NCBI GenBank assembly: GCA_963749835.1
Contig: CAVVOD010000003.1
Span: 656,721 to 720,720 of the forward strand
Direction: 5' to 3'
Length of the DNA: 64,000 nucleotides
From: an uncultured Acidobacteriota bacterium
GTDB taxonomy: Bacteria; Acidobacteriota; Vicinamibacteria; Vicinamibacterales; 2-12-FULL-66-21
A model generated the notes under the pieces. It saw nothing but the letters and a program-made list of their open reading frames with translations. It did not search any database and had not been told where the DNA came from. Positions 7,101 to 48,999 of this stretch are shown here, piece by piece; positions within the stretch are counted from its first letter, which is position 1; the number at the start of each line of letters is the position of its first letter. Both the position numbers and the translations under genes were made by a program.

Positions 7101-7204
7101 CGATGCGGAGCCGTCAGCCGCTGACCCGACTATTCTGAGTTCTTGCCTTTCCGTGCGACCCGTGATGATCTCTGGCGGCGGTGGGACCCGCGGAGGGAGG
7201 CCTG

Positions 7205-9697: not shown

Positions 9698-9700
9698 AGA

Positions 9701-9970
9701 ACACGGGGCAAGAGAATTCTGCGAGAGGGCACGGAGGAAATTCCAACACGGAGACACGGGGACGCGGACACGCACGGAGAGAATCTGCTGGCTTGGTCCC
9801 GATCGGCGGTGGTCGAGCCGCGCCGGACGAAGACCGGCGCCCGACCACCCTCCCACTGGATTCAGAAAACCACGCCTGAACAGTGATTTCTGAGACTGCG
9901 CCCGCCGCCATCCGGACCTCTCCGTGCGTCCCCGTGCCTCCGCTACTCCGTGGTGAATCTTTCCGTGATC
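9701..9970. repeat. CACGG/CCGTG-array element flanking a GC hairpin (REP/MITE-like intergenic element)
   Basis: Five CACGG motifs lie on the left (9702, 9730, 9747, 9755, 9773). Four CCGTG motifs, their reverse complement, lie on the right (9922, 9932, 9948, 9963). They surround the hairpin at 9808-9849, between convergent genes. Confidence 0.55.
9808..9849. terminator. strong GC stem-loop between convergent genes (possible bidirectional terminator, no U-tract)
   Basis: GGTGGTCG (9808-15) pairs with CGACCACC (9842-49). GCGCCGG (9820-26) pairs with CCGGCGC (9834-40), with loop ACGAAGA. No T-run follows on either strand, so intrinsic-terminator function is uncertain. Confidence 0.3.
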
Positions 9971-10094
9971 TCCCGCAGCGTGCCTTGTCGCGATAGACGC
10001 ACGCATCAGTGTCGATATGCGTGCCGGAGTGCTGATACCCCTCGCGAAGTTGGTGTCGCTCCGTTCACACAGGTTCTGTCCGGCCGCAAAGCCG

Positions 10095-11419: not shown

Positions 11420-13872
11420 CGAGACGCGGCGGGCGCGCGCTCCGGCAGCGCGAACACGACGTAGCTGCTCGGACCCCTGGGTTCACCGTCAGCCTGCGTC
11501 CACGGCCCGCCTTCGCGAGACGCCTTGCCCCACGTCAGGGCAGTCGTCGCGCTGACAACGAGGTACTGGCGCCCGTTGATCTGGTACATCGCAGGAAGGC
11601 CCTCAGATCCGCGCGGCAGTTCGCCGGCCCAGAGTACATCGCCGGTGCGGGCGTCGTAGGCGCGCACCTTGCCGTCCTTCGCAGTCGAGAACAGCAGGCC
11701 GGTGGACGTGACGATCATCCCCATGCGCTGACCGCCACGGGGCACGCCGGTGTCGGTCGCGCCGAGCCCCGCCGCCATCTGATCGACGCCGAGCGGGCGC
11801 TGCCAGGTGATCGTCCCGGTGTTGAGATCGTAGGCCGTGATCTGCGCCCAGCGGCCGTTCATGATGTAAGGAAAGCCGAGTCCGTAGCCGGTGTAGTACC
11901 GCGACTTCGGCACTTCGATGCCTTCAGGGTAGGGCGCGCCGCCGGCGCGGAACTCCGGGCCGCGGACCACCTCGAGCCCGCCTGGCGCGCCGCCAACCGC
12001 GACGACCGGTCCTTCAGGGACTGTCGGTGGACCGCTGCCGGCAGGCCAGGCGCCTGGTCCCCCGGGGCCCGCGGCTCCGCCCCCTGCGCGCGTGACGGCG
12101 GGGTCGTCGGTGATGAACCCCCACATGGCGCGCATCGCCTCATCGTCGGTCGAGGGAAACGCCGGCATGTGTCCGCGGCCGGCAAGGACGACCTGACGGA
12201 AATCCTCGAATCTCACGCGCGAGCCGAGCCCAACCAGCGTCGGAGCGGTCGGCGTGCCGGTCCGATCCGCGCCGTGACACGACTGACAGCTCTGGGAATA
12301 GAGACTGCGGCCGCGCTGCTCGGGCGGAAACGCGCGCGCCGCGGCGTTGGGCGTCAGGTTCGGTGGATTCTCCGAGAGCTTGTAGAACGACGGAAAGTCC
12401 TGGCTGACTACGTAGACGAGCCCTTTCGCCGGGTTGGCGGCGGTGTTGCCCCAGTTGGCGCCCCCGACGGCGCCGGGCAGGGCCACGGTCTCGTGCTCGG
12501 TCGAGAGGGGCGCGAACAGGCCGTGTCGTGCCTTGCGGAGACGCTCGAGCCAGGTCGTGCGCTCCTCCGGCGTGAGGAAGAGCGGTGTCAGATCGGCCTC
12601 TCTCATCGACTGGCGTGCGAACGGCGCGGGCTTCGTCGGGAAGGGCTGCGTCGGCCACGTCGCCTCTCCCGGGACATCGCTCTTCGCAATCGCGCGCTCT
12701 TCGACAGGCCAGAGCGGCCGGCCGGTCACGCGGTCGAACACGAACAGGAAGCCATGCTTGGCGGCTTGCGCCACCGCATCGATCGTCTTTCCGTCGTGAC
12801 GCACCGTGATGAGCTGCGGCGCCGCGGTGAGGTCGTAATCCCAGAGGTCGTGGTGCACGACCTGGAAGTGCCAGAGACGCTTGCCGGTGCGCGCCTCGAT
12901 CGCGATCAGGCTGTTCGCGTAGAGATTGCTGCCGACCCGATCGGCGCCGTAGTAGTCGTAGGTCGGTGAGCCTGTCGGAAAATACGCGATGCCCCGTCTG
13001 GCGTCGACCGAGATCTCCCCCCAGGTGTTCGCACCGCCGACGTAGCGCCACGCGTCCTTCGGCCACGTCTCGTAGCCGTCCTCTCCCGGGTGCGGCACGG
13101 TGTGGAACGACCACACCTCCGCGCCGGTGACGACGTCGTAGGCGCGTAGCGTGCCCGGCGCCGAAAGATATCCCTCGCCCGGCGCCGAGCCGAGCAGCAG
13201 CAGGTTCTGGTAGATGCGGCCGGGCGTGCCTGACTGCACACGGCCCACGAAGGCGGGATCACGGCCGAGCCCCTGACGCAGATCGACGAGCCCGTTCTTC
13301 CCGAAGCTCAGAATCGACTTCCCGGTGGTGGCGTCGATGGCCTGGAGGTAGTTGTTGATCTGGAAGATCAGGCGGCGATCGCGCCGATCCGGGCTCTCCC
13401 AGTAGTTGATGCCGCGACGCGCGATCCCGCGCAGGCCCGCGTGAATCCAGCGCTCCTTGCCCGTCAGCGCGTCGAGCGCCACGAGCGAGCTGTTCTTCGC
13501 CAGCACGTACATCGTGGTGTCGACCACGATGGGGTTGAACTGGTAGACGTTGTTGTCGCCGACAGGATAGGTCCACGCCGGGCGCAGCGTACCGACGTTC
13601 TCCGGCGTGATCTCTTTCATGTCGACGTACTTCGAGGAGTCAGACGTCCCCCCGTAGTCGACCCAGCCGATCGATGGTGCCGGGCCCGCCGCGGCCCGGT
13701 CGGGACGAGCCTGGCCGCTGACGACGCAGGCGACGCCCAGGCCGATCGCGGCGGTGAGCACACCCGGCGGCACCAAGTGGGAGATGCGCGACCGATGCGT
13801 GGTCACAGAGCGAGCCGTGACCGGCCCGCAGGAATCGCGTTGCGTAGTGCGCAATGATCTATGCGGGCGCAT
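11416..13872 (-). CDS. PQQ-dependent dehydrogenase (beta-propeller) with embedded c-type cytochrome motif
   Basis: Propeller repeats are visible (WTYPVGDNNVYQFNPIVVDTTMYV..., ALDALTGKERW, AIDATTGK). A CQSCHG haem-binding site sits in an internal segment, and there is an N-terminal TM/signal segment. Start set to ATG 13872. The track ORF extends to 14013. Confidence 0.8.
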   Translation of the reverse strand: MRPHRSLRTTQRDSCGPVTARSVTTHRSRISHLVPPGVLTAAIGLGVACVVSGQARPDRAAAGPAPSIGWVDYGGTSDSSKYVDMKEITPENVGTLRPAWTYPVGDNNVYQFNPIVVDTTMYVLAKNSSLVALDALTGKERWIHAGLRGIARRGINYWESPDRRDRRLIFQINNYLQAIDATTGKSILSFGKNGLVDLRQGLGRDPAFVGRVQSGTPGRIYQNLLLLGSAPGEGYLSAPGTLRAYDVVTGAEVWSFHTVPHPGEDGYETWPKDAWRYVGGANTWGEISVDARRGIAYFPTGSPTYDYYGADRVGSNLYANSLIAIEARTGKRLWHFQVVHHDLWDYDLTAAPQLITVRHDGKTIDAVAQAAKHGFLFVFDRVTGRPLWPVEERAIAKSDVPGEATWPTQPFPTKPAPFARQSMREADLTPLFLTPEERTTWLERLRKARHGLFAPLSTEHETVALPGAVGGANWGNTAANPAKGLVYVVSQDFPSFYKLSENPPNLTPNAAARAFPPEQRGRSLYSQSCQSCHGADRTGTPTAPTLVGLGSRVRFEDFRQVVLAGRGHMPAFPSTDDEAMRAMWGFITDDPAVTRAGGGAAGPGGPGAWPAGSGPPTVPEGPVVAVGGAPGGLEVVRGPEFRAGGAPYPEGIEVPKSRYYTGYGLGFPYIMNGRWAQITAYDLNTGTITWQRPLGVDQMAAGLGATDTGVPRGGQRMGMIVTSTGLLFSTAKDGKVRAYDARTGDVLWAGELPRGSEGLPAMYQINGRQYLVVSATTALTWGKASREGGPWTQADGEPRGPSSYVVFALPERAPAASR

Positions 13873-29385: not shown

Positions 29386-32058
29386 CTATGAGCCGCGGAG
29401 GACCACCACTGGATCAACCCTCGCCACTCTCGCGGCCGCGCACCAGGATGTAAGCAGGGACGTCAACGCGAGCGAGCCACCTGCCGCAGCGAACGTTGCC
29501 AGATCCCGCGGTGGCACGTCGTACAACATGACGGTCATCACAGGGGCCAGCACGAACATTCCCAGAACACCAAGTGCAATGCCAACCATCGCGACAGCGA
29601 TGTCGTGCCGCACTACCTGACGGACCACATCTGTCGGCCTCGCTCCCAGCGCAAGCCTTATCCCAATCTCACGTGTTCGTTGCGCGACGGAGTGAGCGAC
29701 GACTCCATACGCACCTGTCAGCGCCAGGAACAACGCCACAGCGGCGAAAAGGCACAGCAGGCTCAGACTGAAGTTGCGGTTCGCGATCGAAGCGCCAAGC
29801 ACCTCGTCCAGCGTCGCAAACTCCGCAATGGCCTGTGTATGATCGAGCCGGGCAATCGTCTCGCGGACCGACGGAGCGACGTTCATCGGGTCTCCGTGGG
29901 TTCGAACAACGACCCGCACGGACCTCAAAACCATGGAGCGCTTGAAAGGCGCATACACCTGCGGCAACGGTTCCGCGTCCAATTGCCAGTCTTTGAAATC
30001 GACAACGACGCCCGCAATCGTGCCGCTGACATAGGGTCCTGTCACGTGTCGTCCGATCGGCTCCTGCCCACGCAACACGGTTTCGACAAATCGCTGGTTC
30101 ACGAGGAGCGCGTCGGTCGACTCAACCGCGTCACTCGAGAGCGCGCTGTCGCTGGGCCATCGTCCTCGGATCAGGGGCACGCCGATTGCGCGCAGATACC
30201 CCAGAGACACGGGTTTGAATGTCGCGAACGTCTGGCTGCCCGGAACCGACTCGGACGTTTCCGGGGCAACGCCATCCACTTTGACCGGGGAGTTGAAGGA
30301 TCCTGCATCGATGCCAACGGCCGAGACTCCGGGCACGCCCTCCAGGCGTTGCAACAACTCCTGGACATACTGTTCCTGCGGAACTCGGCTCGCGTAACGC
30401 GGTCCTGATAACGACACTCTCGTGACTAGAATCTGTTCAGGATCGAACCCTGGAGGACCGGAGCTCATGAGCCAGAAGCTCTTGAACATCAACCCTGCGG
30501 CGATGAGCAGCGCCGTGGCGAACGTCAGTTCAAGGGTCACGAACAAGCTCCGAATGCGACGCACTCCAGGCGGGGGCGACGTCATTTTGTCTTCGCGTTT
30601 GAGCGCTGAGGTAAGGTCGGTTCTCGAGAGCGCGGCCGCAGGAGCGATTCCAAACAACACGGTGCTCACGAGAGCCGCGACGACTGCGAAGACCAGGACC
30701 TGGGCGTTGATAACGGCTCCTTCCAGGCGGGGAACGGCATGTGGCCACAACCGAACGATGGCCTGGAGTGCCCACTGCGCCAGCGTGAGGCCCGCTCCGC
30801 AACCAACGAGCGCCAACAGCAGACTCTCTGAAAACAGCTGGCGGACAATGCGGGTTCGTCCGGCCCCGAGCGAGGCGCGAATCGCGATTTCCGCCTGCCG
30901 TGACAACGATCGGGCCAACAAGACGTGCGCGATGTTCGTGGTGGCAATCATCAGAATCAACGCGACCGCGATGAGCAGGATCTTCAGGGGTGTCTCAACC
31001 GGGCTGACAACCTTGTCCAGCAACGGCACGACGCGGAGGGTCCTCCCTTCACGCAGCGGGGTTGGGAAGTCGCGGGCAATCTGGTCGAAGATGCCCTGAA
31101 GCTCGGTTCGCCCTTGTTCGAAGGCAGCGTCCGGTCGCAACTTGCCTACAACCCGGACCCATCCCGACACGGGACGCCCGCCAGGGATGCTCCTGTCCGG
31201 GGCCCCTGGCTGGCCTGGCGCGGTGGACAGCGCGATGTAGGCGGCTGGATCCATCAGGTCGTTACCCAACGCGTCAGGAAATGCGACGCGGTAATCACGG
31301 GCGAGCACCCCGACGATCGTCACGGGGTACCCGCTCAGCGTCACAGTCCTCCCGAGCACACTTCCGTCGGCCTTGAATTTTTGTTCGAACAGCCGGTGGG
31401 AGAGGACAACCGCGTTCTGTTCATCCGGCGCGAACAACCGGCCGAGCTCCGCCTTTGCCCCTGTCATGGCCCAGAAGTCTTCCGATACCAGCGTGACCTG
31501 CTCGTCGTTCGCTTGACCGGATGCGAGAAGGGCGACGTCGGCCTGGCCGTATGCGGCCATTCGCTCGAACGACTTCGCACGGTCGCGCCAGATGGTGAAA
31601 TCCGGCCGCGACACCATGGTGTCGATGTTGAAACGATAGGCGTGGGGCGTGATCCAAACCAGTCGTTCAGGATCTGGGTGCGGAAGCGGACGGAGCAGCA
31701 CGGCGTGAAAGACGCCGAATATCGCGGCATTCATGCCGATAGCGGTCGCCATCGTCAGAACGACGACGACGGATACGCCGGGACTCCGGCGGATCATTCG
31801 AAGGCCGTAGCGCATATCCTGCAACCACGAATCCCAGGATCCCAGCCAGGCCTCGCGCGCCTCCTCCCTCGCCAGCATGACGTTGCCGATGGCTCGTCGG
31901 CTCGCATCCTGTGCCGCAGACGCCGGTAGACCTTGCCGCTCCAGGTGCATCTGTCGCAACGAGCGGTGCGCCTCGATCTCCTCGCGAAGCTCCGCGTCGA
32001 GGCGAGATTGTCGGAGGAGGTAAATAAACTTGCGAAGCCATCTACGCATCTGCGACAC
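29386..32058 (-). CDS. ADOP-type duplicated MacB/FtsX-like permease (lower-GC copy)
   Basis: 890 aa. N-terminus RRWLRKFIYLLRQSRLDAELREEIEAH, two FtsX halves, C-terminus AARVARVDPVVVLRGS. A hand-counted line (30421-30480) gives about 55% G+C. No intact PadR lies upstream. Confidence 0.9.
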   Translation of the reverse strand: MSQMRRWLRKFIYLLRQSRLDAELREEIEAHRSLRQMHLERQGLPASAAQDASRRAIGNVMLAREEAREAWLGSWDSWLQDMRYGLRMIRRSPGVSVVVVLTMATAIGMNAAIFGVFHAVLLRPLPHPDPERLVWITPHAYRFNIDTMVSRPDFTIWRDRAKSFERMAAYGQADVALLASGQANDEQVTLVSEDFWAMTGAKAELGRLFAPDEQNAVVLSHRLFEQKFKADGSVLGRTVTLSGYPVTIVGVLARDYRVAFPDALGNDLMDPAAYIALSTAPGQPGAPDRSIPGGRPVSGWVRVVGKLRPDAAFEQGRTELQGIFDQIARDFPTPLREGRTLRVVPLLDKVVSPVETPLKILLIAVALILMIATTNIAHVLLARSLSRQAEIAIRASLGAGRTRIVRQLFSESLLLALVGCGAGLTLAQWALQAIVRLWPHAVPRLEGAVINAQVLVFAVVAALVSTVLFGIAPAAALSRTDLTSALKREDKMTSPPPGVRRIRSLFVTLELTFATALLIAAGLMFKSFWLMSSGPPGFDPEQILVTRVSLSGPRYASRVPQEQYVQELLQRLEGVPGVSAVGIDAGSFNSPVKVDGVAPETSESVPGSQTFATFKPVSLGYLRAIGVPLIRGRWPSDSALSSDAVESTDALLVNQRFVETVLRGQEPIGRHVTGPYVSGTIAGVVVDFKDWQLDAEPLPQVYAPFKRSMVLRSVRVVVRTHGDPMNVAPSVRETIARLDHTQAIAEFATLDEVLGASIANRNFSLSLLCLFAAVALFLALTGAYGVVAHSVAQRTREIGIRLALGARPTDVVRQVVRHDIAVAMVGIALGVLGMFVLAPVMTVMLYDVPPRDLATFAAAGGSLALTSLLTSWCAAARVARVDPVVVLRGS

Positions 32059-32363: not shown

Positions 32364-33995
32364 ATGCGACTGCTCACTCCGATGCTCCAGATTCAGCGGG
32401 GACCACACATGACTCGAACGAACGCCGTCGTTGGCGGTGTGACATTGGTGATCGGGCTGGTGGCAATCGCCATCGCGTTGCCACGCGCCCAGGCGGGCGC
32501 TCCCGCGAAGCCGGCAGCAGGAGCGCGTCAGGGCGGTGCGCCGGACCAGGGCGGCCGCGGTGGTCCCGACGCCAATCCGACGGCTGCGCTCTTCACGGCG
32601 CAATGTTCAGGCTGTCACGGCACGGACCTGGCCGGAGGCCGGGCGCCCAGCCTGTTCGATGAGCGGTGGCTCGCATCGACGACGGACGAGCGAATTGCGA
32701 ACGCGATTCGCAATGGTGTTCCGAATACCGCCATGGTGCCGTTCAAGAACTTGGGTGACGAACAGATCTGGCAACTCACGCAGTACGTGCGAACGCAGAG
32801 CGGCGTCCTGAAAGCGCGTCCCGCGTTCGTCGTCGCCGCCCTGGACGGCGCGGTGGTGAAAAGCGAGAAGCAGACGGTGCGTATGGAAGTCGTGGCCAAG
32901 GATTTGGACACGCCATGGGGCATCGCGTTTCTGCCCGACGGCCGCATGCTCGTCACCGAGCGGACTGTCGGCGGCGGTCAGCTTCGGGTCGTGGAGAAGG
33001 GCGTCCTGCTGCCGGCCGTGAAGGGCACGCCACGTGTCCACGTCCAACAGGATGCCGGGATGTTCGATGTGCAGGTGCACCCGCGGTACGCCGACAACGG
33101 CTGGATCTATCTGTCCTACGCGGAGCTCCTTCCCGGCTACACGCCGCCGGCCGCGCCGGCCGCCGGCACGGGTCGCGGCGGAGCGACGGCGCCGTCGATG
33201 ACCGCGATCGTCCGCGGACGACTGAGAAACAACGAGTGGGTCGATCAGCAGTTCATCTATCACGCGCCGCCGGCGCTCTACACGGCAGACGGTTCGCACT
33301 TCGGGTCGCGATTCCTCTTCGGACGTGATGGGCATCTCTTCTACTCGATTGGCGATCGCGGCGTGATGCGGAACGCGCAGGATCTGTCGAGCCCGCTCGG
33401 CAAGATTCATCGGGTGAATGACGATGGGACGATTCCGGGCGACAACCCGTTCGTGAATACGCCGAACGCGGTAGCGTCAATCTGGAGCTACGGCCATCGC
33501 AACCCGCAAGGCCTCGCGTGGGATCCCGTCTCCGGCCGGCTCTGGGAAACGGAGCACGGGCCCACGGCTGGCGACGAGGTCAACATCATCGAGCGCGGAC
33601 ACAACTACGGATGGGGAATCGCGACGAAGGGCACCGAACCCGGCATCACCAAGAGCTCGGAGCCGGGGATGGACGAGCCGATCGTGTACTACATCCCGAC
33701 GTACGCACCGGCGGGCATCTCGTTTTCGACAAGCGATCGCTATCCCGCCTGGAAGAATACGAGCCTGTTTGTCGGCGGTCTCGCCGGGCAGGCACTTCGC
33801 CGTCTCGAAATCTCCGGCAGTCGGGTGACGCGACAGGAAGTGATCTTCAATCAGTACGGCCGCGTGCGCGACGTGGTCGAAGGACCGGACGGCTACCTGT
33901 ACCTCGCCATCAACCACGCCACCGGTGCAGGAACGAACTACGGTCTCATCGCGCCGGTCCCTGGCTGGGTCGTCCGGCTCATGCCAGTGCAGTAA
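32364..33995 (+). CDS. PQQ-dependent sugar dehydrogenase (soluble glucose/sorbosone dehydrogenase family) with N-terminal cytochrome c domain
   Basis: A CSGCHG haem motif with a downstream Met region (NTAMVPF). The SGDH propeller follows (PWGIAFLPDGRMLVTER, HFGSRFLFGRDGHLFYSIGDRG, WSYGHRNPQGLAWD, GHNYGWG). An alternative start at ATG 32409 (MTRTNAVVGG..., TM/signal) is likely. Confidence 0.85.
   Translation: MRLLTPMLQIQRGPHMTRTNAVVGGVTLVIGLVAIAIALPRAQAGAPAKPAAGARQGGAPDQGGRGGPDANPTAALFTAQCSGCHGTDLAGGRAPSLFDERWLASTTDERIANAIRNGVPNTAMVPFKNLGDEQIWQLTQYVRTQSGVLKARPAFVVAALDGAVVKSEKQTVRMEVVAKDLDTPWGIAFLPDGRMLVTERTVGGGQLRVVEKGVLLPAVKGTPRVHVQQDAGMFDVQVHPRYADNGWIYLSYAELLPGYTPPAAPAAGTGRGGATAPSMTAIVRGRLRNNEWVDQQFIYHAPPALYTADGSHFGSRFLFGRDGHLFYSIGDRGVMRNAQDLSSPLGKIHRVNDDGTIPGDNPFVNTPNAVASIWSYGHRNPQGLAWDPVSGRLWETEHGPTAGDEVNIIERGHNYGWGIATKGTEPGITKSSEPGMDEPIVYYIPTYAPAGISFSTSDRYPAWKNTSLFVGGLAGQALRRLEISGSRVTRQEVIFNQYGRVRDVVEGPDGYLYLAINHATGAGTNYGLIAPVPGWVVRLMPVQ
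33932..33993 (+). repeat. left copy of imperfect 62-bp direct repeat (last 20 codons of the sugar dehydrogenase gene)
   Basis: Aligns base by base with 40482-40542. By hand count, 53 of 62 positions are identical, including one 1-nt gap. Confidence 0.8.
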
Positions 33996-34039
33996 CGGCT
34001 CGATTCGATCCGGCCCAGGAGAATCCCGCGAACGAGTGA

Positions 34040-35500
34040 TCACTCGAGCATGTCCGAGAGTTCTCTCCGGCCGAGCTCCTCTTCGAGGGTGGACGGCTCG
34101 ATCATCCGATGGAGGTCTGGAATGACGTGCAGCAGCGCGCGCATGTGGTGCTCGATGCGTTCGCGGACGAACTTGCGGAACTCTTCGTTCCTCAGGCTGA
34201 CGAGATCCCTCAGTTCCTCGGGCATCGCGGGCGGGACGTCGTCGAGCGGCGCCAGCGCCGCATCGAAGCTCTCGCGGAATGCCTGCAGGCGATCGAGATG
34301 CTCCATCAGCTTCCGGTCGCCGTCGCGCCCCGTGATCGCTTCGAGCTGCTTCTCGAACAGGTGCCGTTCCGCCAGCGTCTCTATCGTCTCGTTGCTGAGG
34401 GGTGAGACGAACACGCCGACGAACTCCTCACGGAACTTCTTATCCAGCTCTTCTGTCACTTTCCAGTTCTCATCCAGCTCCCGCACAATCTCGTTCTGGA
34501 ATGCTGTCCCGTCGTCGCGCTGACGGCCGGTCGCAAGGTCGGAGATCCAGTCGGGAAACTCGCGGCGCGCTTCCTGGATCCACTCGTGCGCCACCGTGAC
34601 ATTGTTCTCCTTCATGTACCGGTCGACATCACCGCGGGTCTTGTTGAACATCGTGAGGACGCCGCCGCGCTCTGTGCTCACGAGCGTGCGGTAGGTCTGC
34701 ACGAGCTCCCGGTGCAGGCGCGCGCGGTCGACGAGCGCGGCCGCCGCGAGCTCGAGCTGCTGCTGCGCGGAACGGAGCTGGGTCTCCATGTCGCCCGGCA
34801 TGCCGTCGGGCTTGATCTGCTCGAGCACCCATTGCTTCAGGAACTCGACCGCTGTCTTGAGCCACTCCCCTGCCGGCCCCAGCTGCGCCTTTGCCTTGGC
34901 CTTGAGCTCCTCAACCTTGCGCTTTGCGGCCTCGGCCGCCTTCGCCGCATTGTCCACGAGCTCTTTGTGCCACTGGTCCAGGTCCTCGACGATCTCCTTC
35001 ACCATCTCGTCGATCCTGCGCACTGCCTGCAGCTGGTCGGTCTCGAGCGCGGTATCGGCGCTCAGGACGAACTTCCAGCCGTCCTGCAACTCCGCAATGA
35101 GCTTCGATAGTCCGTCCTGGTGTTTGAGGATGTCGTCGAGGAACCGCGGCGCCTCCATGGCCATCATCGGCTCGAAGAACGACTCCTCTGCCTGCAGCGC
35201 CGTGGCCCAGAACAGCTGCAGCGGCGGGGGCAGCATCAAATCCTTCACAGCGTCGCCGAACAGCCGGTTGTACTCGGCGCGGAACGCGGTCACGCGCGCG
35301 TCCCAGCGTGCTTCGGTTCCCAGGTTCCCGGCGCTGGCCTTGGTGATGATGTCGACGAGCTCGTCGAGCGCCCGCTGCCGCAGATCCACGTAGCGGTCGA
35401 TGCACTGCGTCAGTGCCGTGCGCACACGCTCGTCCGCGCCGACAGCGGCCTGCGTCAGTTGCTCGCGAAGCTCTCCGGGGCGAGCGCCATAGGCCGCCAT
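34040..35500 (-). CDS. hypothetical all-helical protein (486 aa), unknown function
   Basis: Long ORF with high GC3 and an E/K/R/L/D-rich helical composition. There are coiled-coil-like stretches (AAKAAEAAKRKVEELKAKAKAQ). No TM segment, no signal peptide and no catalytic motif I recognise. It starts 24 nt after the stop of the upstream PDZ gene. Confidence 0.6.
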   Translation of the reverse strand: MAAYGARPGELREQLTQAAVGADERVRTALTQCIDRYVDLRQRALDELVDIITKASAGNLGTEARWDARVTAFRAEYNRLFGDAVKDLMLPPPLQLFWATALQAEESFFEPMMAMEAPRFLDDILKHQDGLSKLIAELQDGWKFVLSADTALETDQLQAVRRIDEMVKEIVEDLDQWHKELVDNAAKAAEAAKRKVEELKAKAKAQLGPAGEWLKTAVEFLKQWVLEQIKPDGMPGDMETQLRSAQQQLELAAAALVDRARLHRELVQTYRTLVSTERGGVLTMFNKTRGDVDRYMKENNVTVAHEWIQEARREFPDWISDLATGRQRDDGTAFQNEIVRELDENWKVTEELDKKFREEFVGVFVSPLSNETIETLAERHLFEKQLEAITGRDGDRKLMEHLDRLQAFRESFDAALAPLDDVPPAMPEELRDLVSLRNEEFRKFVRERIEHHMRALLHVIPDLHRMIEPSTLEEELGRRELSDMLE

Positions 35501-35524
35501 CGTCTGCCTCTTCTCTCAACGCCG

Positions 35525-37178
35525 TCAGATCGACTGGCGGGTCGCAATCCGCCACGGACCGCCGCCGCGGCGCTGCAGCGTCCACTGCCGGTTCACCTCG
35601 GAACTGTTGAACGCGTGAAACTTGCCGTCGAATTCCCCGATGTGTTCGAGCTCCGCGCCAACCTGCTCGATCCGAGGTGCGCCGGGATACTCGTCTCCGT
35701 TCTGCAGCATCCGCGGCTCGTCGACCCAGACGACGCGGACGTCACAGACCGTCTCGAGCATGCGGCGCTGGGAACGAACCCAGTCCTCGTCCCGGGTGCC
35801 TGGCGCATACGGATCGAATGGATAGTAGATGGGACGCTGCTCGTCCGGGAGGAAGCGCCAGACGGCGAAGAGCTGATTCCAGACACCTTGATCGCCCGCT
35901 TTGAGCGCCGCAACCATCGCCTCGAGGACCTCGCGCGGACTGGCTTCATCGGGCGGCACGGTCGCACGCGGGCGCCTGATGTCGTCCTCGCCGGCAAACG
36001 GCGATTCGTCTTCGCGCACGACCGAGAGGTCGACGAACATGGCATCGTCTGCGAGCACGGCGATCGGCTGGACCTCGAATCCGGCCACGCCACGGCCGCC
36101 CATGACGACCATTCGCGGGTCCTGAAGGACACGGCCGACGAGGGCATAGGTATCGCGGATGCGGGGCGTCACGAGCCGCTTGTAGCGCTGCTGAGCCAGA
36201 AACGCCCTCCGCATGTCCGGCGCATCGGCCGGCACGAAGAACCAGGTCCGATTCTGCTCGGACCAGAGAAAGCTGCGATCGACGCTGACGACCCATTGCG
36301 ACGGCGGAATGGCCGGCAGCGCCACGAGCTTCCCGGTCACCGCCGCACGATCGCCGCGCAGTGGATCGACGGAGGGGATCTCGTGCAGCAGCTCGCCGTC
36401 GTGTGCGCCGAGGTATGCCTTCCACCCCTCGGCGGCGCGTCGTGCCACAGCAGCCGTGCGCTCCTCTTCGACCTCGCGAAAATCGAGAGCGTCCGGCGTC
36501 AGCGTGTAGAGCGTCCCCTCGAGACTGCTTCGGACCGCATCCCAGTCGGCCTTGACGGCATCCGCAAACGGTCCCGGATAGGTGCGGCTCAGGAAGTCGA
36601 CGCGCGCGCCTTCCTCCAGATGGTCCGCAAGGGTGCGGCGCGTATTCAGTCGTGCCTCCCAGCCGCCGTCGAGCACGCGCTCCCAGTCGAAGACGCGCTT
36701 TTCGTACCAGCCGGACCACGGGCCGTCGAAACCGTCGGTGATGAGCGACTCGGGGCCGGTCGGGCCCATGCCACGACGCCCGTTCTCGCCGCTATAGGCG
36801 CGCTCGGCCCGCACCTGGCCGGTCACTTCGATGATCTCCCACCCCTCGCCCGGATACCTGCGCCGCCGGACGCTCAGGCGCAGCGGACTGCCGTCGACCA
36901 GCCCGCGCCCCTTGAAGGTGTCACTCTCGTTGAGGCCACCCGGCAACTCGCGAATCGCGCGCTGCATCGCGGGCGTGTCGGCCGGCCGGACGAGCGCTAT
37001 CCCGTCGATGGCGACAATCTGATCGCCAGCGCGCAGTCCGCTGTCGCGGAAACCGCTGTTCCACGCGATCCACGACACGCGGAGCGCCGGCGTACAGGCT
37101 CTCGAGCAGGCTGCGCGTGCTCAACCCGCTCCGCAGCGTGTCAAAGACGATCTCGCGCCAGTCAACGCCTTCAGTCAT
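35525..37178 (-). CDS. hypothetical PDZ-domain protein (about 550 aa), apparent 5'-proximal frameshift
   Basis: The 517-aa ORF begins in a PDZ-like segment (GLRAGDQIVAIDGIAL). The upstream ORF from ATG 37178 (MTEGVDWREIVFDTLRSGLSTRSLLESLYAGAPR, 30/37 GC3) joins it by a 1-nt shift near 37075. The remainder has no recognisable family. The C-terminal ~120 aa may be NTF2/SnoaL-like (a guess). Confidence 0.55.
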
Positions 37179-37375
37179 GGTCCATCAGCGGGTGAAGATT
37201 GCCGCAACTGGCACAAGCGAGCAAGGGAAATGGAGCGGGGATTCTCGTTCAGGCCAGGTGTGCCGCGCCAGTCGAGCACTCGTCCGCGCGTCCTGACACC
37301 GGCCGAAGGTCGTGCCAGGTGCAAGGGCTCGTTTTAAACCTTTTGGCCGGTGTATATATCTAAAGAGACAAACGT

Positions 37376-37731: not shown

Positions 37732-40461
37732 ATGCGCCGCCTCCTTCTCCTGCTGCTCCCGCGTGATGCTGGCGTTCACCAGCACGAGCTCGACCAGCAA
37801 TTCGAGTACTGCGTGCGGCGCGAGCGCGCGCGCCTCGGACGGCTGGGCGTTCCCTACGCGTGGGCGAGGCTCGTCCTCGACGTCGTGATGACGTCGCTGC
37901 TCCTCCGCCGCGACGCCTGGCACCGGCGGCGCATCAACCGCCTCGGCGCTCAGGTGACTTCTGGAGATTCGATCATGATCAGACTGCGCGAAGATATCCG
38001 CTACTCGGTCCGTGTTCTTCTTCGAAGCCCCGGTTTCTCGGCGGCAGTCGTCATCGCGCTGGGGCTGGCGATCGGCGCCACGACGAGCGTGTTCACCGTG
38101 GTGAATGCGGTGCTCCTGAAGTCGCTGCCGTTCAGGGACGCATCGCGGCTGGTCATGGTCTTTGAGGAAATTCCTGGGACGAACTCGGGTCCGATCTCGT
38201 TTTCCGCGCCGGATTTCAGAGCGTTCCAGGAACGCGCACGGAGCTTCGACGGCCTCGCGGCCTACGCCACGAAGACCTACGAGCTGTCGGGCATCGATCA
38301 ACCCGAGCGCGTGGCCGCGCTTCGCGCCTCGGCGGCGCTGTTCGACGTCCTCGGTGCCGCACCCGTCCTGGGGCGCGCATTCACGCGGGAGGAGGACGAG
38401 GGGCGGATCCCGGTGGCCGTGCTGAGCGACGGATTGTGGCGGCGATCGTTCGGCGCCGATCCGTCGGTGATCGGCCGCGCGGTGATGATCGATCGCCGTG
38501 CGCATACCGTCGTCGGCGTGATGCCCCGGACGTTCGTGTTCCCCAGCAAAGGTCCGCTTCACAACAACGAGCCGGCCGACCTCTTCGTGCCCGTCAGCTT
38601 CACGAGCGCGGAGCTGAACGGCTTCGCCAGCATGTACAACAACAGCGTCATCGGGCGCCTGAAGCCGGACGTCACGCTGCAACAGGCGGATGCAGACACG
38701 CGCGCCGTCGTCGCCCGGCTCGTGAGCGAGGTCTATCCCGCTCCGATGGGGGACGGCGGGTTCAGGCTCTCCGGATCGGTGAGCCCGCTGCGGACCGAAA
38801 CCGTCGGCCGGGTGGAACGCCTGCTCGAGATCCTGTTCGTCGCCGTGATGATTGTGCTGCTGATCGCCTGCGCCGACGTCGCCAGCCTGATGCTGACGCG
38901 CGCCGTTGCGCGAAGCCGCGAAGTCGCCGTGCGGTCGGCACTCGGCGCCAGCCGCGCGCAGCTGGCGCGGCAGGTGCTCACCGAAGCCGCGCTGCTGTCG
39001 CTCGGGGGCAGCGTGCTTGGCGTGCTCATCGCCTATGCGTCCACGGAAACGATCGCGCGGGTGGCGCCCCCGACCATCCCCAGGCTCAACGAACTCGCGC
39101 TGGACTGGCGCGTGATGACGTTCGCGATCGTCAGCTCGATGCTCACGGCGCTCGCCTGCGGCTGCCTGCCGGCCCTCGAGCTCTCGCGCCGGCCGTCCGC
39201 GGACGCGCTGAAGGACGGCGGACGGAGCGGAACGGCCGGCAGGCGTCAGAAACGGCTGTTCGGAGCGCTCGTCACGGCGCAGTTCGCCCTGGCCGTCGTA
39301 CTCCTCGTTGCCGGTGGCCTGCTGATTCGCAGCTTCAACCGGCTGATGGCGGTCGACCCCGGCTTTCGATCCGAGCGCGTGATCACGCTCGCGACGAGCC
39401 TGCCGGCGCTCGCGTATCCCGACGCGCAGTCAATCCGGGCGTTCTATCAACGGCTGCTCGAGCAGGTCGAGGCGCTGCCGGGCGTCAAGGCATCTGCGGC
39501 ATCGACCGACCTGCCGCTGTCGATTCGCGAGCGCCGAGCGTTCACGATCGAGAATCCGCCGCCGCTGCCCGAGTCCGTCCCGAAAGTGATCGCACAGGAT
39601 TGGGTCGTCGGGCAGTACTTCGAGGCGCTGGGGATCACGCTCCGACGTGGACGCTTCCTCTCCAGCCAGGACACGGGACGATCCGAGCCTGTCGTGGTCG
39701 TCAATGAAGCGTTGGCGAAGGCCTTTTGGGCGAATCTGGACCCGGTGGGACAGCGAATCGCATTCGGCGGCGCACGCGATCACGGTCCATGGATGCGCAT
39801 CGTCGGGATCGTGGCTGACGTCAAGCAGGGACCGCTGGGAACGCCGGTCGTTCCGCAGACCTATACGCCCTGGCTGCAGACCTCCAACGGAATGGTGGCG
39901 GACAACGTGGTCGGAGCCCTGCGCGCGTTGAAGGTCATTGTTCGCACCGACAGCGATCCGCTGGCGGTTGCCGGCGCCATCCAGGCCCAGGTGCGGGCCA
40001 TCGACGGCTCGCTGCCGATCTCGCGCCCCCGCACGATGGAAGAAGTCGTTCACGGATCGCTCGAGCCGCAGCGCTTCAACACGGTGCTGCTCGCGGCATT
40101 CGCGGCCGTTGCCGTCACACTGGCCGGCGTCGGGATCGCGGGCGTGCTTGCAACCGCGGTGTCACGGCGCACGCAGGAGATCGGCGTGCGCATGGCGCTC
40201 GGCGCCGAGCGGCCGCACGTGCTCAGGATGATCATCCGTCAAGGCATGGCGCTGGTGCTCGCGGGCGTGGCGGTCGGCGTCCCCGCCGCGTTCCTCGCGG
40301 CGAGGTTCATGTCGAGCCTGCTGTTCGGCGTTGGCCCGCGCGACGCAATCTCTTTTGTCGGGGCAACAACCCTGCTGCTGGCGGTGGCGCTCGTCGCCTG
40401 CTATCTGCCCGCGCGACGCGCGACCCGGGTCGATCCGATGGTCGCGCTCAGATGGGAGTAG
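37732..40461 (+). CDS. ADOP-type duplicated MacB/FtsX-like permease with N-terminal prefix domain
   Basis: Start at ATG 37732, or at the GTG 37723 coupled to the PadR stop. The track ORF (from 37312) runs over the PadR gene in another frame. Two FtsX halves are present. The C-terminus is LPARRATRVDPMVALRWE. Confidence 0.9.
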   Translation: MRRLLLLLLPRDAGVHQHELDQQFEYCVRRERARLGRLGVPYAWARLVLDVVMTSLLLRRDAWHRRRINRLGAQVTSGDSIMIRLREDIRYSVRVLLRSPGFSAAVVIALGLAIGATTSVFTVVNAVLLKSLPFRDASRLVMVFEEIPGTNSGPISFSAPDFRAFQERARSFDGLAAYATKTYELSGIDQPERVAALRASAALFDVLGAAPVLGRAFTREEDEGRIPVAVLSDGLWRRSFGADPSVIGRAVMIDRRAHTVVGVMPRTFVFPSKGPLHNNEPADLFVPVSFTSAELNGFASMYNNSVIGRLKPDVTLQQADADTRAVVARLVSEVYPAPMGDGGFRLSGSVSPLRTETVGRVERLLEILFVAVMIVLLIACADVASLMLTRAVARSREVAVRSALGASRAQLARQVLTEAALLSLGGSVLGVLIAYASTETIARVAPPTIPRLNELALDWRVMTFAIVSSMLTALACGCLPALELSRRPSADALKDGGRSGTAGRRQKRLFGALVTAQFALAVVLLVAGGLLIRSFNRLMAVDPGFRSERVITLATSLPALAYPDAQSIRAFYQRLLEQVEALPGVKASAASTDLPLSIRERRAFTIENPPPLPESVPKVIAQDWVVGQYFEALGITLRRGRFLSSQDTGRSEPVVVVNEALAKAFWANLDPVGQRIAFGGARDHGPWMRIVGIVADVKQGPLGTPVVPQTYTPWLQTSNGMVADNVVGALRALKVIVRTDSDPLAVAGAIQAQVRAIDGSLPISRPRTMEEVVHGSLEPQRFNTVLLAAFAAVAVTLAGVGIAGVLATAVSRRTQEIGVRMALGAERPHVLRMIIRQGMALVLAGVAVGVPAAFLAARFMSSLLFGVGPRDAISFVGATTLLLAVALVACYLPARRATRVDPMVALRWE

Positions 40462-40481: not shown

Positions 40482-40542
40482 AACGGCTTACGGTCTCATC
40501 GCGCCGGTACCTGGCCTGGTCGTACGGCTCGTGCCAGGCAGT
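40482..40542 (+). repeat. right copy of imperfect direct repeat: orphan 3'-end fragment of a sugar-dehydrogenase paralog
   Basis: Encodes AYGLIAPVPGLVVRLVPGS, compared with NYGLIAPVPGWVVRLMPVQ-stop at 33932-33995. It begins 20 nt after the ADOP stop. No upstream dehydrogenase body is present. Confidence 0.8.
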
Positions 40543-42570: not shown

Positions 42571-45027
<2,457 letters not shown>

Positions 45028-45147
45028 TCCTCCCTGACGTGAACTACGACACGGGACCCCAATCGTTCCACAAGACAGTGCGCAGCGACACCGCGGTTCA
45101 GAAAGGCTAAGCTGTCCCTCGCAGTCGACAACACGGAGAGGTGAACG

Positions 45148-46239: not shown

Positions 46240-48999
46240 CTACACATCCGCTCGCAAGGCGACAACGGGATCGACGCGCGCGGCGCGGCGCGCTGGAAGA
46301 TATATCGCCAGCAGCATCACGGCTGCCAGCGCTCCTGACACGGCCGCATACGTCATGGGATCCGTCGGGCTCACGCCGAACAGCAGCGCGCGCATCACCC
46401 GGCTGAGCGCGAGCGCCGCACCGACGCCGAGCGCGATGCCGATGGTCGTCAGCCAGAGGCCGTGCCGCAGAAACATCCTGCGAACATCCCCAATCTGCGC
46501 GCCGAGCGCCATGCGGATGCCGATCTCTCGCGTGCGCTGTGCGGCGATATAGGCGATGACGCCATAGAGCCCGACGATGCCGAGCAGCAGCGCCATGAGC
46601 GCGCCGATGACGAGCATCGTGAGCGTGAAGGACGTCTGGGCCATCGAGTCCGCCCGTATCTCGTCGAGAGTCTGTACGTTCGCCAGCGGGAGACTGGGAT
46701 TCACGGACCAGACCGCCTGCTCGAGCTCGTGCAGGAAGCCCGGCGAATGGATCCGGTCCGATCGGACGGCGTACGACATCGTGCGGGAAACGAACGGCCC
46801 GTCCACCAGCCGCTTCGTGGCCATCGGCCAGTACGCGATCGCGGGTGCGGGCTGATTCAGCCCATCATCGCGCTCGTCCCCGACGATCCCGATGATCTCC
46901 CGCCAGGGCTGCCTGGGGCTGACGCGCATGCGCTTGCCGAGGGCGTCCGCCGGATTCGCCCAGTACGCGCGGGCGAGCGACTCGGACACGACCACAACGA
47001 GGGCGTCCTGGTAAATGTCCGTCCAGGTGACGCTGCGTCCAACGAGCACCCGGTTGCCCATCGCCTGGAAGTATCCAGGTGCGATGAATTTGTGGCGACG
47101 AAACTGGCGAGCCCGGGCGCCAGTCTCAGGGAATGCTTCGACCAGGATCGAGCCGTTGAAGTAGATCCCATCCATCGTCATCGACGAGGCCAGTCCGACC
47201 GACTGCACGCCGGGGAGCTGTCGCAGGCGTTCGGCAATCTGCTCGTGCGTTCGTGCGGTCTGCTGCGCATCGCTGACGAGCGTCTGGGGGATCGCCACGC
47301 GGAACGTCTGCAGCTGTTCGGGACGCGTGAAGCCGGGATCGACCCGACGCAACGCGAGGAACGTGCGGATCATCAGGCCCGACACGACCAGGAGCACGAG
47401 GGCCAGCGCGACCTGCGCCACGACGAGCGTGTTGCGCGTGCGGTGCCGTTCCGGACCCCCGCTCCCCGCCCGGCCGCTTTCCTGAAGCGCTGTCAGACTC
47501 GGCGCCCCGAACTTGAGCACGCCGACCAGACCGAAGAAGAATCCCGCGACGAGCGCGGTCCCGAGCGTGAACAGCAAGACGACCGGGTGAAATCCGATCT
47601 CGTCGACGCGCGGTAGTCCGGACGGCGCCAACCAGACCAGCAGGCCAATGCCCGCACGGGCGAGCGCCAGGCCCAGCAGGCCGCCGGCGAGCCCGAGCGT
47701 CACGCATTCGGTGAGCAGCCCGCGGGCCACCCGGCCTCGGCTCGCACCCAGCGCCGATCGGACGGCGAGCTCGCGCCGGCGACCCTCGGCCCGCACGAGG
47801 AAGAGGTTCGCCACGTTGGCGCAGGCCATCAACAGGACGATCCCGACCGTGCCGAACAGGATCCACAGCACGCGTCCGACATCGCCAATCACGTCGTCCG
47901 ACAGCGGATGGACATGGGGCTTCAACCGTATCGGCTGCTCGCCCGCCTGCGGTGGGAACCGCTCGAACACGCGCGGAATCAGGCGTGCCACATCGTCGTT
48001 CGCCTGCGCGATCGTGACGCCAGCCTTGAGCCGAGCAATACCGAAATAACTGAAGTTGCCCAGCGCGGGGTCGGCGCGATTGAATCGGAATGGCAGCACC
48101 ACCGAGGGATCCGTGTCGAGGAACCTGAACGACGCGGGCAGGACACCGATCACTTCGTGCGGCTTGCCGTCGATGGTCACCATCTGCCCGACAATGTCCC
48201 GGTCGCCGCCGAACCGTCGCTGCCAATAGCCGTAGGTCAACACCGTCCGATCCGGACTGCCAGGCGCGTCGTCTGCCTCGGTGAACAGCCGGCCGAGCAG
48301 CGGCGTCACTTTCAGAATCGGCAGCGTGCCGTCGGTGACGTACAGCGTTTTAACGCGTTCGGGCTCGCCCCGACCCGTGATCGAGACATCGGGAAACGGG
48401 ACCCACAAGCCGACGTCCTCGAACACACGGCCATCGTCACGATAGGTGAAGTAGGTCGAGGGGCTTTGCTGGAACTTGTCGAAGCCCAACTCGTGGGCCG
48501 TGTGCCACATGCCGACCAGGCGGTCCGGCTCGGTGAATGGGAGTGGCTTCAACAGCACGCCGTAGATCACGCTGAAGATCGCGGTCGTGGCGCCGATTCC
48601 GAGCGCCAGCGTCAGCACGGCCATCGCCGCGAACCCCGGCTGCTTCAAGGACATCCGCATCGTGTAGCGCAGGTCCTGCCAGAGATCGGTCAGCACGTGT
48701 CCGGTCCGGACTCCCGGCGTGATTGATGGCGGGACGTGCGCTTGCCGCAGCGGCGCCATCAGCTGCGCGAGGACGTTCCCACTGGTGAACTCGGCGAGCG
48801 CCAGGCGCGTCGCCGCCTCCGGTGACGCCCCTCCTGCGATCAACTCCCGATAGCGGTCGGCCAGATGCTGCGTGAGTTCGTCGACGATCTCCGCCTCACG
48901 GGCGGGCGAGAGATGCAACGAGGCCAGCCGTGTGCGTACCTCGCGCGCCCATTGCGCCGTGAGCGCCCCGTCGTTTGTCGGAGTCGAGGGATCAGGCAT
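46240..48999 (-). CDS. ADOP-type duplicated MacB/FtsX-like permease (intact)
   Basis: 919 aa with an N-terminal prefix domain (…SPAREAEIVDELTQHLADRYREL…) and two FtsX halves. The C-terminus is LPARRAARVDPVVALRADV. Its ATG overlaps the end of the degraded PadR frame (ATGCCTGA). Confidence 0.9.
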   Translation of the reverse strand: MPDPSTPTNDGALTAQWAREVRTRLASLHLSPAREAEIVDELTQHLADRYRELIAGGASPEAATRLALAEFTSGNVLAQLMAPLRQAHVPPSITPGVRTGHVLTDLWQDLRYTMRMSLKQPGFAAMAVLTLALGIGATTAIFSVIYGVLLKPLPFTEPDRLVGMWHTAHELGFDKFQQSPSTYFTYRDDGRVFEDVGLWVPFPDVSITGRGEPERVKTLYVTDGTLPILKVTPLLGRLFTEADDAPGSPDRTVLTYGYWQRRFGGDRDIVGQMVTIDGKPHEVIGVLPASFRFLDTDPSVVLPFRFNRADPALGNFSYFGIARLKAGVTIAQANDDVARLIPRVFERFPPQAGEQPIRLKPHVHPLSDDVIGDVGRVLWILFGTVGIVLLMACANVANLFLVRAEGRRRELAVRSALGASRGRVARGLLTECVTLGLAGGLLGLALARAGIGLLVWLAPSGLPRVDEIGFHPVVLLFTLGTALVAGFFFGLVGVLKFGAPSLTALQESGRAGSGGPERHRTRNTLVVAQVALALVLLVVSGLMIRTFLALRRVDPGFTRPEQLQTFRVAIPQTLVSDAQQTARTHEQIAERLRQLPGVQSVGLASSMTMDGIYFNGSILVEAFPETGARARQFRRHKFIAPGYFQAMGNRVLVGRSVTWTDIYQDALVVVVSESLARAYWANPADALGKRMRVSPRQPWREIIGIVGDERDDGLNQPAPAIAYWPMATKRLVDGPFVSRTMSYAVRSDRIHSPGFLHELEQAVWSVNPSLPLANVQTLDEIRADSMAQTSFTLTMLVIGALMALLLGIVGLYGVIAYIAAQRTREIGIRMALGAQIGDVRRMFLRHGLWLTTIGIALGVGAALALSRVMRALLFGVSPTDPMTYAAVSGALAAVMLLAIYLPARRAARVDPVVALRADV

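Follow-up and report, generated by a model that had tools for sequence, protein, structure and literature searches.

What can two adjacent genes do together when neither product belongs to a characterised protein family? The question is raised by two minus-strand genes in a 64,000-nt stretch of contig CAVVOD010000003.1 (assembly GCA_963749835.1) from an uncultured Acidobacteriota bacterium; this whole stretch is referred to below as the window. Gene A encodes a protein with an N-terminal PDZ domain, and gene B, directly downstream, encodes an all-helical protein of 486 aa. A preliminary description of the window read the pair as a two-gene operon to which no function could be assigned, and as the best candidate in the window for an uncharacterised system. 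It also named what would speak against this: matches to well-characterised families, a pair that is not kept as neighbours in other genomes, or open reading frames (ORFs) without homologues. None of these was found. Beyond a PDZ fold and an NTF2-like fold, neither protein matches a characterised family; the adjacency of the two genes is strongly conserved across phyla; and homologues are numerous, with 66 clusters for A and 39 clusters in a first search for B. Both readings are therefore retained here. Two points were absent from that description, a frameshift in gene A and the occurrence of B without A.

Distribution and cellular location of the pair

Loci carrying A were collected by a pattern scan in which each GTDB species was represented by one genome. 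The scan yielded 32 A loci, and the hosts of A include Beta- and Gammaproteobacteria, Planctomycetota, Myxococcota (Myxococcus, Corallococcus, Kofleriaceae, and Nannocystaceae), Opitutus (Verrucomicrobiota), Nitrospira (Nitrospirota), Nitrosospira, and Acidobacteriota. Adjacency was scored by searching every ORF of these loci, and of others that were fetched, with hidden Markov models (HMMs). Of the 39 loci with A, 37 have B directly 3' of it in the same orientation, and these represent at least six phyla. One exception (L026) has a non-B ORF after A, which was tried as a B-like protein and rejected; in the other (L034) gene A is fragmentary. The spacers between A and B measure 1-25 nt in loci with called genes, except in L040 (62 nt). 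B was retained in L030 despite insertions between the two genes, and the position of the cassette differs between the window and its 97%-identical relative L039. The pair is a discrete cassette of two closely spaced genes in the same orientation, inherited and moved as one. Conserved pairs of hypothetical genes are common, but the present one is exceptionally clear-cut, in that it is found across phyla, acts as a cassette, has co-varying signal peptides, and includes a protein with an alternative partner. If A and B are a functional complex, the cassette would be a portable module of soil and water bacteria of very different phyla. No copies of the cassette were detected in 72,556 plasmids or 50,697 phage records.

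Several single loci deserve mention. The insertion in L030, a metagenome-assembled genome (MAG) of Acidobacteriota, occupies positions 11611-13690 and comprises, according to motif-based calls, a REP-associated/IS200-like Y1 transposase (RAYT) and a RES-toxin/Xre-antitoxin-like pair. A homologue of A annotated from the archaeon Candidatus Nitrososphaera evergladensis (P0256; 543 aa, 34% identity) suggests transfer across domains. In L042 a third gene (7193-8566) follows B, with 2 nt between the stop codon of B and its ATG; the product is an Ala/Leu/Arg-rich protein of 457 aa, which has no Pfam match and was rejected as B-like by hhalign.

Is anything else conserved around the pair? All flanking ORFs of 22 diverse loci were clustered, and 120 immediate neighbours were compared with Pfam and PADLOC. 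No third conserved gene emerged: no family was present in more than two of the 22 neighbourhoods, and defence genes were not enriched. The preliminary description had posed the question whether PadR/ADOP genes, which adjoin the pair in the window, accompany it everywhere. They do not, and only A and B themselves recur. Since no other neighbour is conserved around the pair, the PadR/ADOP adjacency is incidental. Acidobacteria-type loci (window, L002, L030, and L039) are the only ones with ADOP-type genes close to the pair, and their arrangement differs.

Where in the cell do the two proteins reside? Sec or lipoprotein signal peptides were identified in seven A clusters. Both A and B carry them in L018, L019, L027, L041, and L042, and no locus has a signal peptide on B when A lacks one. 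In about 28 of the 146 listed B representatives the signal peptide ends immediately before the conserved GYDAR..EL N-terminus. Most A proteins with a signal peptide group in one clade, and two lie outside it. Exported pairs mostly carry a signal peptide on both proteins, which places the two in the same compartment. The absence of signal peptides from the window pair, as first described, is borne out: a 97%-identical A protein (P0001) has no N-terminal hydrophobic segment, and the B relatives listed as closest to the window copy had none flagged either. Most A-B pairs, including that of the window, are cytoplasmic, in contrast to bacterial PDZ proteins at large, about 89% of which are exported or bound to membranes (PMC6411480). 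On the simplest reading, A and B have to be in one and the same compartment, and the cytoplasm and the periplasm both allow them to do their work. The existence of cytoplasmic and periplasmic forms speaks against a reliance on ATP or NAD(P)H and against targets made of nucleic acid. The co-varying signal peptides on the two genes thus amount to a clean natural experiment that narrows the possible functions.

Architecture of proteins A and B

The preliminary description had proposed profile searches, structure prediction, and Foldseek as checks. These resolved PDZ and NTF2-like folds in A and matched B to no known family. Protein A was modelled with AlphaFold2 (AF2) from full-length P0001 and a 57-sequence alignment. 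The model has a predicted local distance difference test score (pLDDT) of 93.8 and consists of four parts, the limits of which are given in Table 1. The PDZ-like segment noticed earlier is a PDZ domain, predicted with pLDDT above 90 over residues 1-130. Foldseek matched it to the PDZ domains of HtrA, DegS, DegP, CtpA, and HtrA3 in the PDB (probability 1.0, E 1e-3 to 1e-2, about 115 columns), and a PDB profile search returned PDZ domains only, including those of Scribble and RseP. The Pfam model PDZ_6 scored 19.8-21.4 bits (E 7e-4 to 2e-4) in window A and P0001, short of its cutoff of 27, and gave sub-threshold or weak matches in 52 of the 57 homologues (best E 5.5e-7). Two motifs in this domain, LRSGLxT and WIAWDSGFRxSGLxxGD, are conserved in the family.

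The two middle domains of A, a five-helix domain and a beta/alpha domain, had no PDB match in Foldseek. Conserved GPxGP...DGFDxxWSxWYEK and YPGPFA motifs lie upstream of the five-helix domain, and a conserved SPFAGE motif comes after the beta/alpha domain. The C-terminal part is an alpha+beta cone, with three helices on a curved sheet, and it fits the secondary-structure order of the NTF2-like fold over residues 414-537. Foldseek matched it to 3bb9 (probability 0.98) and 3f7x (0.77). Weak SnoaL_4 or DUF4440 matches were found in few members (SnoaL_4 in 5 of 57). Residues K426, W433, W440, W466, R481, E509, H512, R530, R536, W542, and R543 are conserved in the cone. Conserved Trp is unusually frequent in A as a whole (19 of 550 residues). 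No protease domain was identified: Pfam and NCBIfam gave no peptidase match, structural alignments to proteases span the PDZ domain alone (111-149 columns), and the 57-sequence alignment contains no invariant Ser, Cys, His, or Lys column. A PADLOC scan of A returned no matches and no domain fusions were found among its homologues. All 66 A clusters are named either "hypothetical" or "PDZ domain-containing".

The AF2 model of B (pLDDT 75.6) agrees with the earlier description of the protein as all-helical. It begins with a four-helix bundle (residues 1-115), which is followed by a hairpin of a 90-residue and a 63-residue helix. The most conserved core was located with two family alignments and includes Y270, GGVLTMFNKTR, W318, D330, T349, F356, G362, and SPLSNETIE; residues D330, F356, E105, W142, R7, and E10 survive across the superfamily. 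With such strongly conserved motifs in its sequence, B is more than a coiled coil. A minority of family members have a hydrophobic tip on the long hairpin. On the Kyte-Doolittle scale the 19-mer value (H19) reaches at least 1.6 in 6 of 109 members and at least 1.2 in 26 of 109, and the 19-mers in question are rich in Gly, Ala, Val, and Ile. In window B the tip has an H19 of 0.17 and a hydrophobic moment of 0.47, unremarkable for B.

An exhaustive profile search enlarged the B family to 312 clusters (50% identity) at E<=1e-3, or 214 at E<=1e-10. Nearly all members are stand-alone proteins of 420-550 aa, and no domain fusions were found among 150 representatives. Comparison of B with Pfam, NCBIfam, PADLOC, the PDB (profile and Foldseek), and BFVD revealed generic amphipathic or coiled-coil similarity only. 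PDB profile searches, including one with a broader family profile, returned designed or viral coiled coils, and PADLOC gave ZorA coiled-coil noise (E 0.005). Most members have weak Apolipoprotein, YtxH, or ApoLp-III amphipathic-helix matches. Assignment to apolipoprotein A1/A4/E (PF01442) was rejected, as the score is 23 bits against a cutoff of 90 and the likeness is one of amphipathic-helix composition. The names "GrpE" and "YqgV" given to some members by JGI were not supported by the searches: GrpE matches are weak and occur in 13 of 40 members (best E 8.5e-5), and the GrpE match in the PDB profile search covers the long N-terminal helix alone (3a6m residues 19-98, E 0.018). The best Foldseek match of B is the F-BAR domain of srGAP2 (E 0.016). 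A ClyA-family pore-former was likewise rejected (Foldseek probability 0.12-0.23, TM-score about 0.17), since generic coiled coils match equally well and the window tip is not hydrophobic.

B is a wider family than A. A metagenome search from the B side revealed a branch of 36-45% identity, in Terracidiphilus-like soil Acidobacteria, whose loci have no A. In 17 of these B comes after a protein of about 1090 aa with two right-handed beta-helix modules (DUF1565/Beta_helix) and no signal peptide. This is a second conserved operon built around B. In 9 of the 17 loci the beta-helix gene is preceded by a gene for a helical protein of 386 aa, the N-terminal part of which resembles the N-terminal domain of B (hhalign probability 89.6%, E 1.9e-6). 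Both the beta-helix protein and the 386-aa protein were tried as divergent A proteins and rejected by hhalign. On a soil metagenome contig (L051, 3-2780) two B genes stand in tandem, 3 nt apart.

Possible functions of the pair

The nearest known things to A-B are PDZ proteases with helical partners and the NTF2-like superfamily. Like HtrA/DegP/DegS, CtpA-LbcA, and Prc-NlpI, the pair combines a protein with the same N-terminal PDZ fold and an all-helical partner, and has periplasmic and lipoprotein versions. However, A has neither the trypsin-like nor the S41 protease domain of the HtrA and Ctp proteases, and B is not a TPR protein. In its C-terminal 137 residues A shares the cone topology of the NTF2-like superfamily (SnoaL, ketosteroid-isomerase-like, and DUF4440 proteins); it differs in its weak sequence matches and in having the cone fused behind a PDZ and two unmatched domains. 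Neither the architecture of A nor the A-B pairing was returned by any library searched. We rate the pair as lying outside the known kinds, in that no known family or system fits it, a rating that reflects an absence of matches and not a demonstrated mechanism.

As a tentative proposal, A-B may be a complex that binds or scaffolds proteins without ATP, in the manner of a holdase or adaptor. The two proteins would form a heteromeric complex that uses no cofactor confined to the cytoplasm (ATP, NAD(P)H) and does not target nucleic acids. Recognition would fall to A, with a peptide or a C-terminus bound by its HtrA/CtpA-type PDZ domain and a possible ligand pocket in its Trp/Arg-lined cone. B would supply an invariant core, an elongated helical hairpin with a conserved globular patch (residues 264-382), and could pair instead with the double beta-helix protein. 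The clients would be polypeptides or envelope components, encountered in the cytoplasm by the window pair and in the periplasm by the signal-peptide clade. PDZ proteins with helical partners in envelope quality control offer a loose analogy. Skp, prefoldin, apolipoproteins, and PspA/Vipp1 resemble B by analogy only: they act without ATP through long helical hairpins, some of them in the periplasm, and B shares their composition (sub-threshold Apolipoprotein, YtxH, and GrpE-helix matches), but it is two to three times larger and has conserved motifs of its own. If A and B are a functional complex, they represent two new protein families, one with a four-domain PDZ architecture and the other a 56-kDa helical protein without detectable relatives. 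Culturable hosts among Corallococcus and Myxococcus species make the pair testable.

A number of points weigh against the holdase or adaptor proposal. Nothing beyond the PDZ fold links the pair to stress or quality control, and the beta-helix partner of B does not obviously fit such a model. In B, the conserved polar core might serve catalysis or hold a ligand. Binding of the C-terminus of B by the PDZ domain of A found no support, as the C-terminal FDRxxLxxxL(R) tail is equally conserved in A-linked B proteins and in those without an A partner. The signal-peptide calls on which the compartment argument draws are hydrophobicity heuristics, the main signal-peptide clade may represent few evolutionary events, and in L040 a signal-peptide-like, RR-containing N-terminus is present on A and absent from B.

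Could one protein carry the function and the other serve it? It has been considered that B is a private chaperone, an assembly or stabilising partner of whichever large beta-rich protein lies upstream (A here, the double beta-helix protein in Acidobacteriaceae), with the real function residing in that protein. B is always downstream behind a short spacer, which could allow translational coupling; it accompanies two unrelated beta-rich partners and goes with its partner into the periplasm; and a second B-like protein, that of 386 aa, flanks the beta-helix gene. We regard this as rather unlikely, because a protein as large as B (56 kDa), as well conserved as A, and with a specific polar core would be unusual in that role, because B genes also occur as a B-B tandem, and because the A monomer folds with very high AF2 confidence. 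Catalysis by A is a different possibility, in which the cone would hold the active site of a SnoaL-type cyclase, isomerase, dehydratase, or epoxide hydrolase acting on a small molecule or lipid, and the PDZ domain and B would be regulatory or localising. The NTF2-like fold and the conservation of E509, H512, R530, R536, R543, K426, and several Trp residues in the cone are in its favour. NTF2-fold enzymes need no cofactor, and such independence fits the periplasmic versions of A. An enzymatic A is nevertheless unlikely: even weak SnoaL_4 matches are confined to the few members mentioned above, the neighbourhoods contain no conserved biosynthetic or catabolic genes, and NTF2-like domains are mostly non-catalytic binders. 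The superfamily comprises members with and without catalytic activity (PMC3924330).

The long hairpin of B also invites comparison with membrane-active proteins. B might form pores or remodel membranes through its tip, as a toxin of the ClyA/XaxAB type or a BAR/PspA-like protein, with A or the beta-helix protein as binding or activating partner; the pair would then be a binary toxin or a membrane-repair module. The ClyA-family two-component toxins (XaxAB, YaxAB, and AhlBC) are likewise encoded by two-gene operons, have a long hairpin with a variable tip, and occur with and without signal peptides, as B does. The low-confidence tip of the B hairpin with its hydrophobic minority, the weak apolipoprotein-type matches of most members, the srGAP2 F-BAR domain as top Foldseek match with AhlB, XaxB, and ClyA also listed, and the predatory Myxococcota among the hosts are consistent with this. 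We nonetheless consider it quite unlikely. No ClyA-family match is significant in structure or sequence (Foldseek probability at most 0.25, with generic coiled coils as good), PDB profile searches returned no pore-former, A is not helical, window B has no hydrophobic head and an unremarkable moment, and no secretion or lysis genes are conserved in the neighbourhoods. Anti-phage defence or abortive infection would accord with the patchy cross-phylum distribution, which fits horizontal transfer, and with the different cassette sites in near-identical genomes. A transposase and RepA are close to the pair in L038, the L030 cassette is interrupted by a RAYT and a RES/Xre pair, and in L001, a betaproteobacterial MAG, the pair (6495-9979) directly follows SIR2_2, nSTAND1, and TPR genes that resemble a defence system. 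Among the loci this association is confined to L001. A defence role appears very improbable, since A and B have no PADLOC match other than ZorA noise and contain no NTPase, nuclease, or other effector domain, and since export of both proteins to the periplasm is hard to square with sensing of intracellular infection. The cassette is also absent from the plasmid and phage records, and the PADLOC families repeated among the 120 neighbours (two neighbours each) look generic, the DpdF matches coinciding with two RecQ-type helicases in Pfam.

A further reading, which we consider rather unlikely, concerns the B family as a whole: it might be an unrecognised class of elongated helical-hairpin proteins that work at the membrane or envelope surface, inside or outside the cytoplasmic membrane, and exchange one recognition partner for another (the PDZ-NTF2 protein or the double beta-helix protein). 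If true, membrane remodelling, pore formation, or envelope maintenance would be served by a modular system of a new kind that has spread horizontally over at least six bacterial phyla.

The window copy and its surroundings

The features of the window copy are listed in Table 1. As first described, both ORFs are long, lie on the minus strand, and have a strong bias to G+C at third codon positions (GC3; 0.82 in A and 0.86 in B), and the length and position of B and the 24-nt separation of the genes were given correctly. Regulatory-signal searches revealed no Rfam match, promoter-like site, or meaningful terminator.

Table 1. Positions of the A-B genes, their domains and associated features in the window, with the A-less loci in the last row
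Feature	Position	Strand	Description
Gene A	35525..37178	-	550-aa PDZ/helical/beta-alpha/NTF2-like protein, broken by a 1-nt insertion at 37096
Uninterrupted ORF of A	35525-37078	-	517 aa from GTG
Extra T	37096	-	GAGCCTGTACG in the window vs GGGCC-GTACG in L039 (DNA alignment)
PDZ domain of A	36788..37178	-	residues ~1-130; AF2, Foldseek, PDZ_6 and PDB profile matches
Five-helix domain of A	36404..36718	-	residues ~154-258; AF2 secondary structure, conservation
Beta/alpha domain of A	36029..36328	-	residues ~284-383; long beta-hairpin; AF2, conservation
NTF2-like (SnoaL-like) cone of A	35528..35938	-	residues ~414-550; AF2 topology, Foldseek, conservation
A-B spacer	35501..35524	-	24 nt; purine-rich sequence resembling a ribosome-binding site, GAGAAGAGG, just before the ATG of B
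Gene B	34040..35500	-	486 aa from ATG, intact; ORF list, GC3 0.86, AF2 pLDDT 75.6
Most conserved core of B	34355..34711	-	residues 264-382; two family alignments
Tip of the long hairpin of B	34796..34882	-	residues 207-235, GPAGEWLKTAVEFLKQWVLEQIKPDG; amphipathic, low pLDDT
Limits of the cassette in common with L039	~34022..37213	-	nucleotide similarity
Direct repeat, copy 1	33932..33987	+	3' end of the cytochrome-c/GSDH gene (32364-33995)
Direct repeat, copy 2	40482..40537	+	86% identical; duplicated GSDH 3' end, then intergenic region and YCII gene, as after GSDH in L039
Beta-helix-type loci	L002/L003/L004, L045-L066, L071		B after ~1090-aa beta-helix protein

Gene A had been described as one continuous ORF reaching 37178, and this did not hold. 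The uninterrupted ORF stops short of that position, and the ATG at 37178 is in another frame. Homologues of A are about 550 aa long and begin with MTEGVDWREIVFDTLRSGL..., which is the frame of the ATG at 37178, and the N-terminal 33 residues are kept in all 66 homologue clusters. A single extra T separates the first 27 codons from the 517-aa ORF; the remainder of window A is 97% identical to P0001 and contains no stop codons. Judged by the extra T relative to the 97%-identical L039, gene A is frameshifted in this genome or the assembly carries an indel. It is possible, if doubtful, that the window cassette is decaying, with a real frameshift that leaves A truncated or inactive here and the first PDZ strands lost. 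The insertion interrupts a region that every homologue cluster keeps, and an adjoining ADOP paralogue (~42574-45030) is likewise split over three frames. However, three frame breaks in 8 kb are equally expected from assembly indel errors, the rest of A is nearly identical to P0001 and free of stops, and gene B is intact.

The nucleotide similarity between the window and L039 runs from about 35 nt upstream of the ATG of A to about 18 nt past the stop codon of B; it is confined to these limits, which marks A and B as the shared unit. L039 has a YCII gene and an ECF-type sigma gene immediately after the cytochrome-c/GSDH gene, with A-B at a distance of about 3 kb. GSDH and YCII are separated in the window by a block of 6.55 kb (B, A, PadR, and ADOP). 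Given the direct succession of GSDH, YCII, and sigma genes in L039, the block is a local insertion or rearrangement. The block is flanked by a 56-nt direct repeat of 86% identity, as the preliminary description had indicated with its repeat-bracketed block, and the divergent intergenic region between A and PadR is 197 nt (37179-37375), close to the length that it gave.

At least four ADOP-type permease genes (duplicated MacB_PCD-FtsX) are present within 20 kb, at 29386-32058, ~37999-40461, 42574-44572, and 46240-48999. At least one of them (~37999-40461) has PadR directly upstream, and expansion of ADOP genes is typical of Acidobacteria. The minus-strand paralogue at ~42574-45030 runs through frames -1, -3, and -1, which adds a further two frame breaks at most 8 kb from the pair and points to assembly indel errors or gene decay in the region, fitting either.

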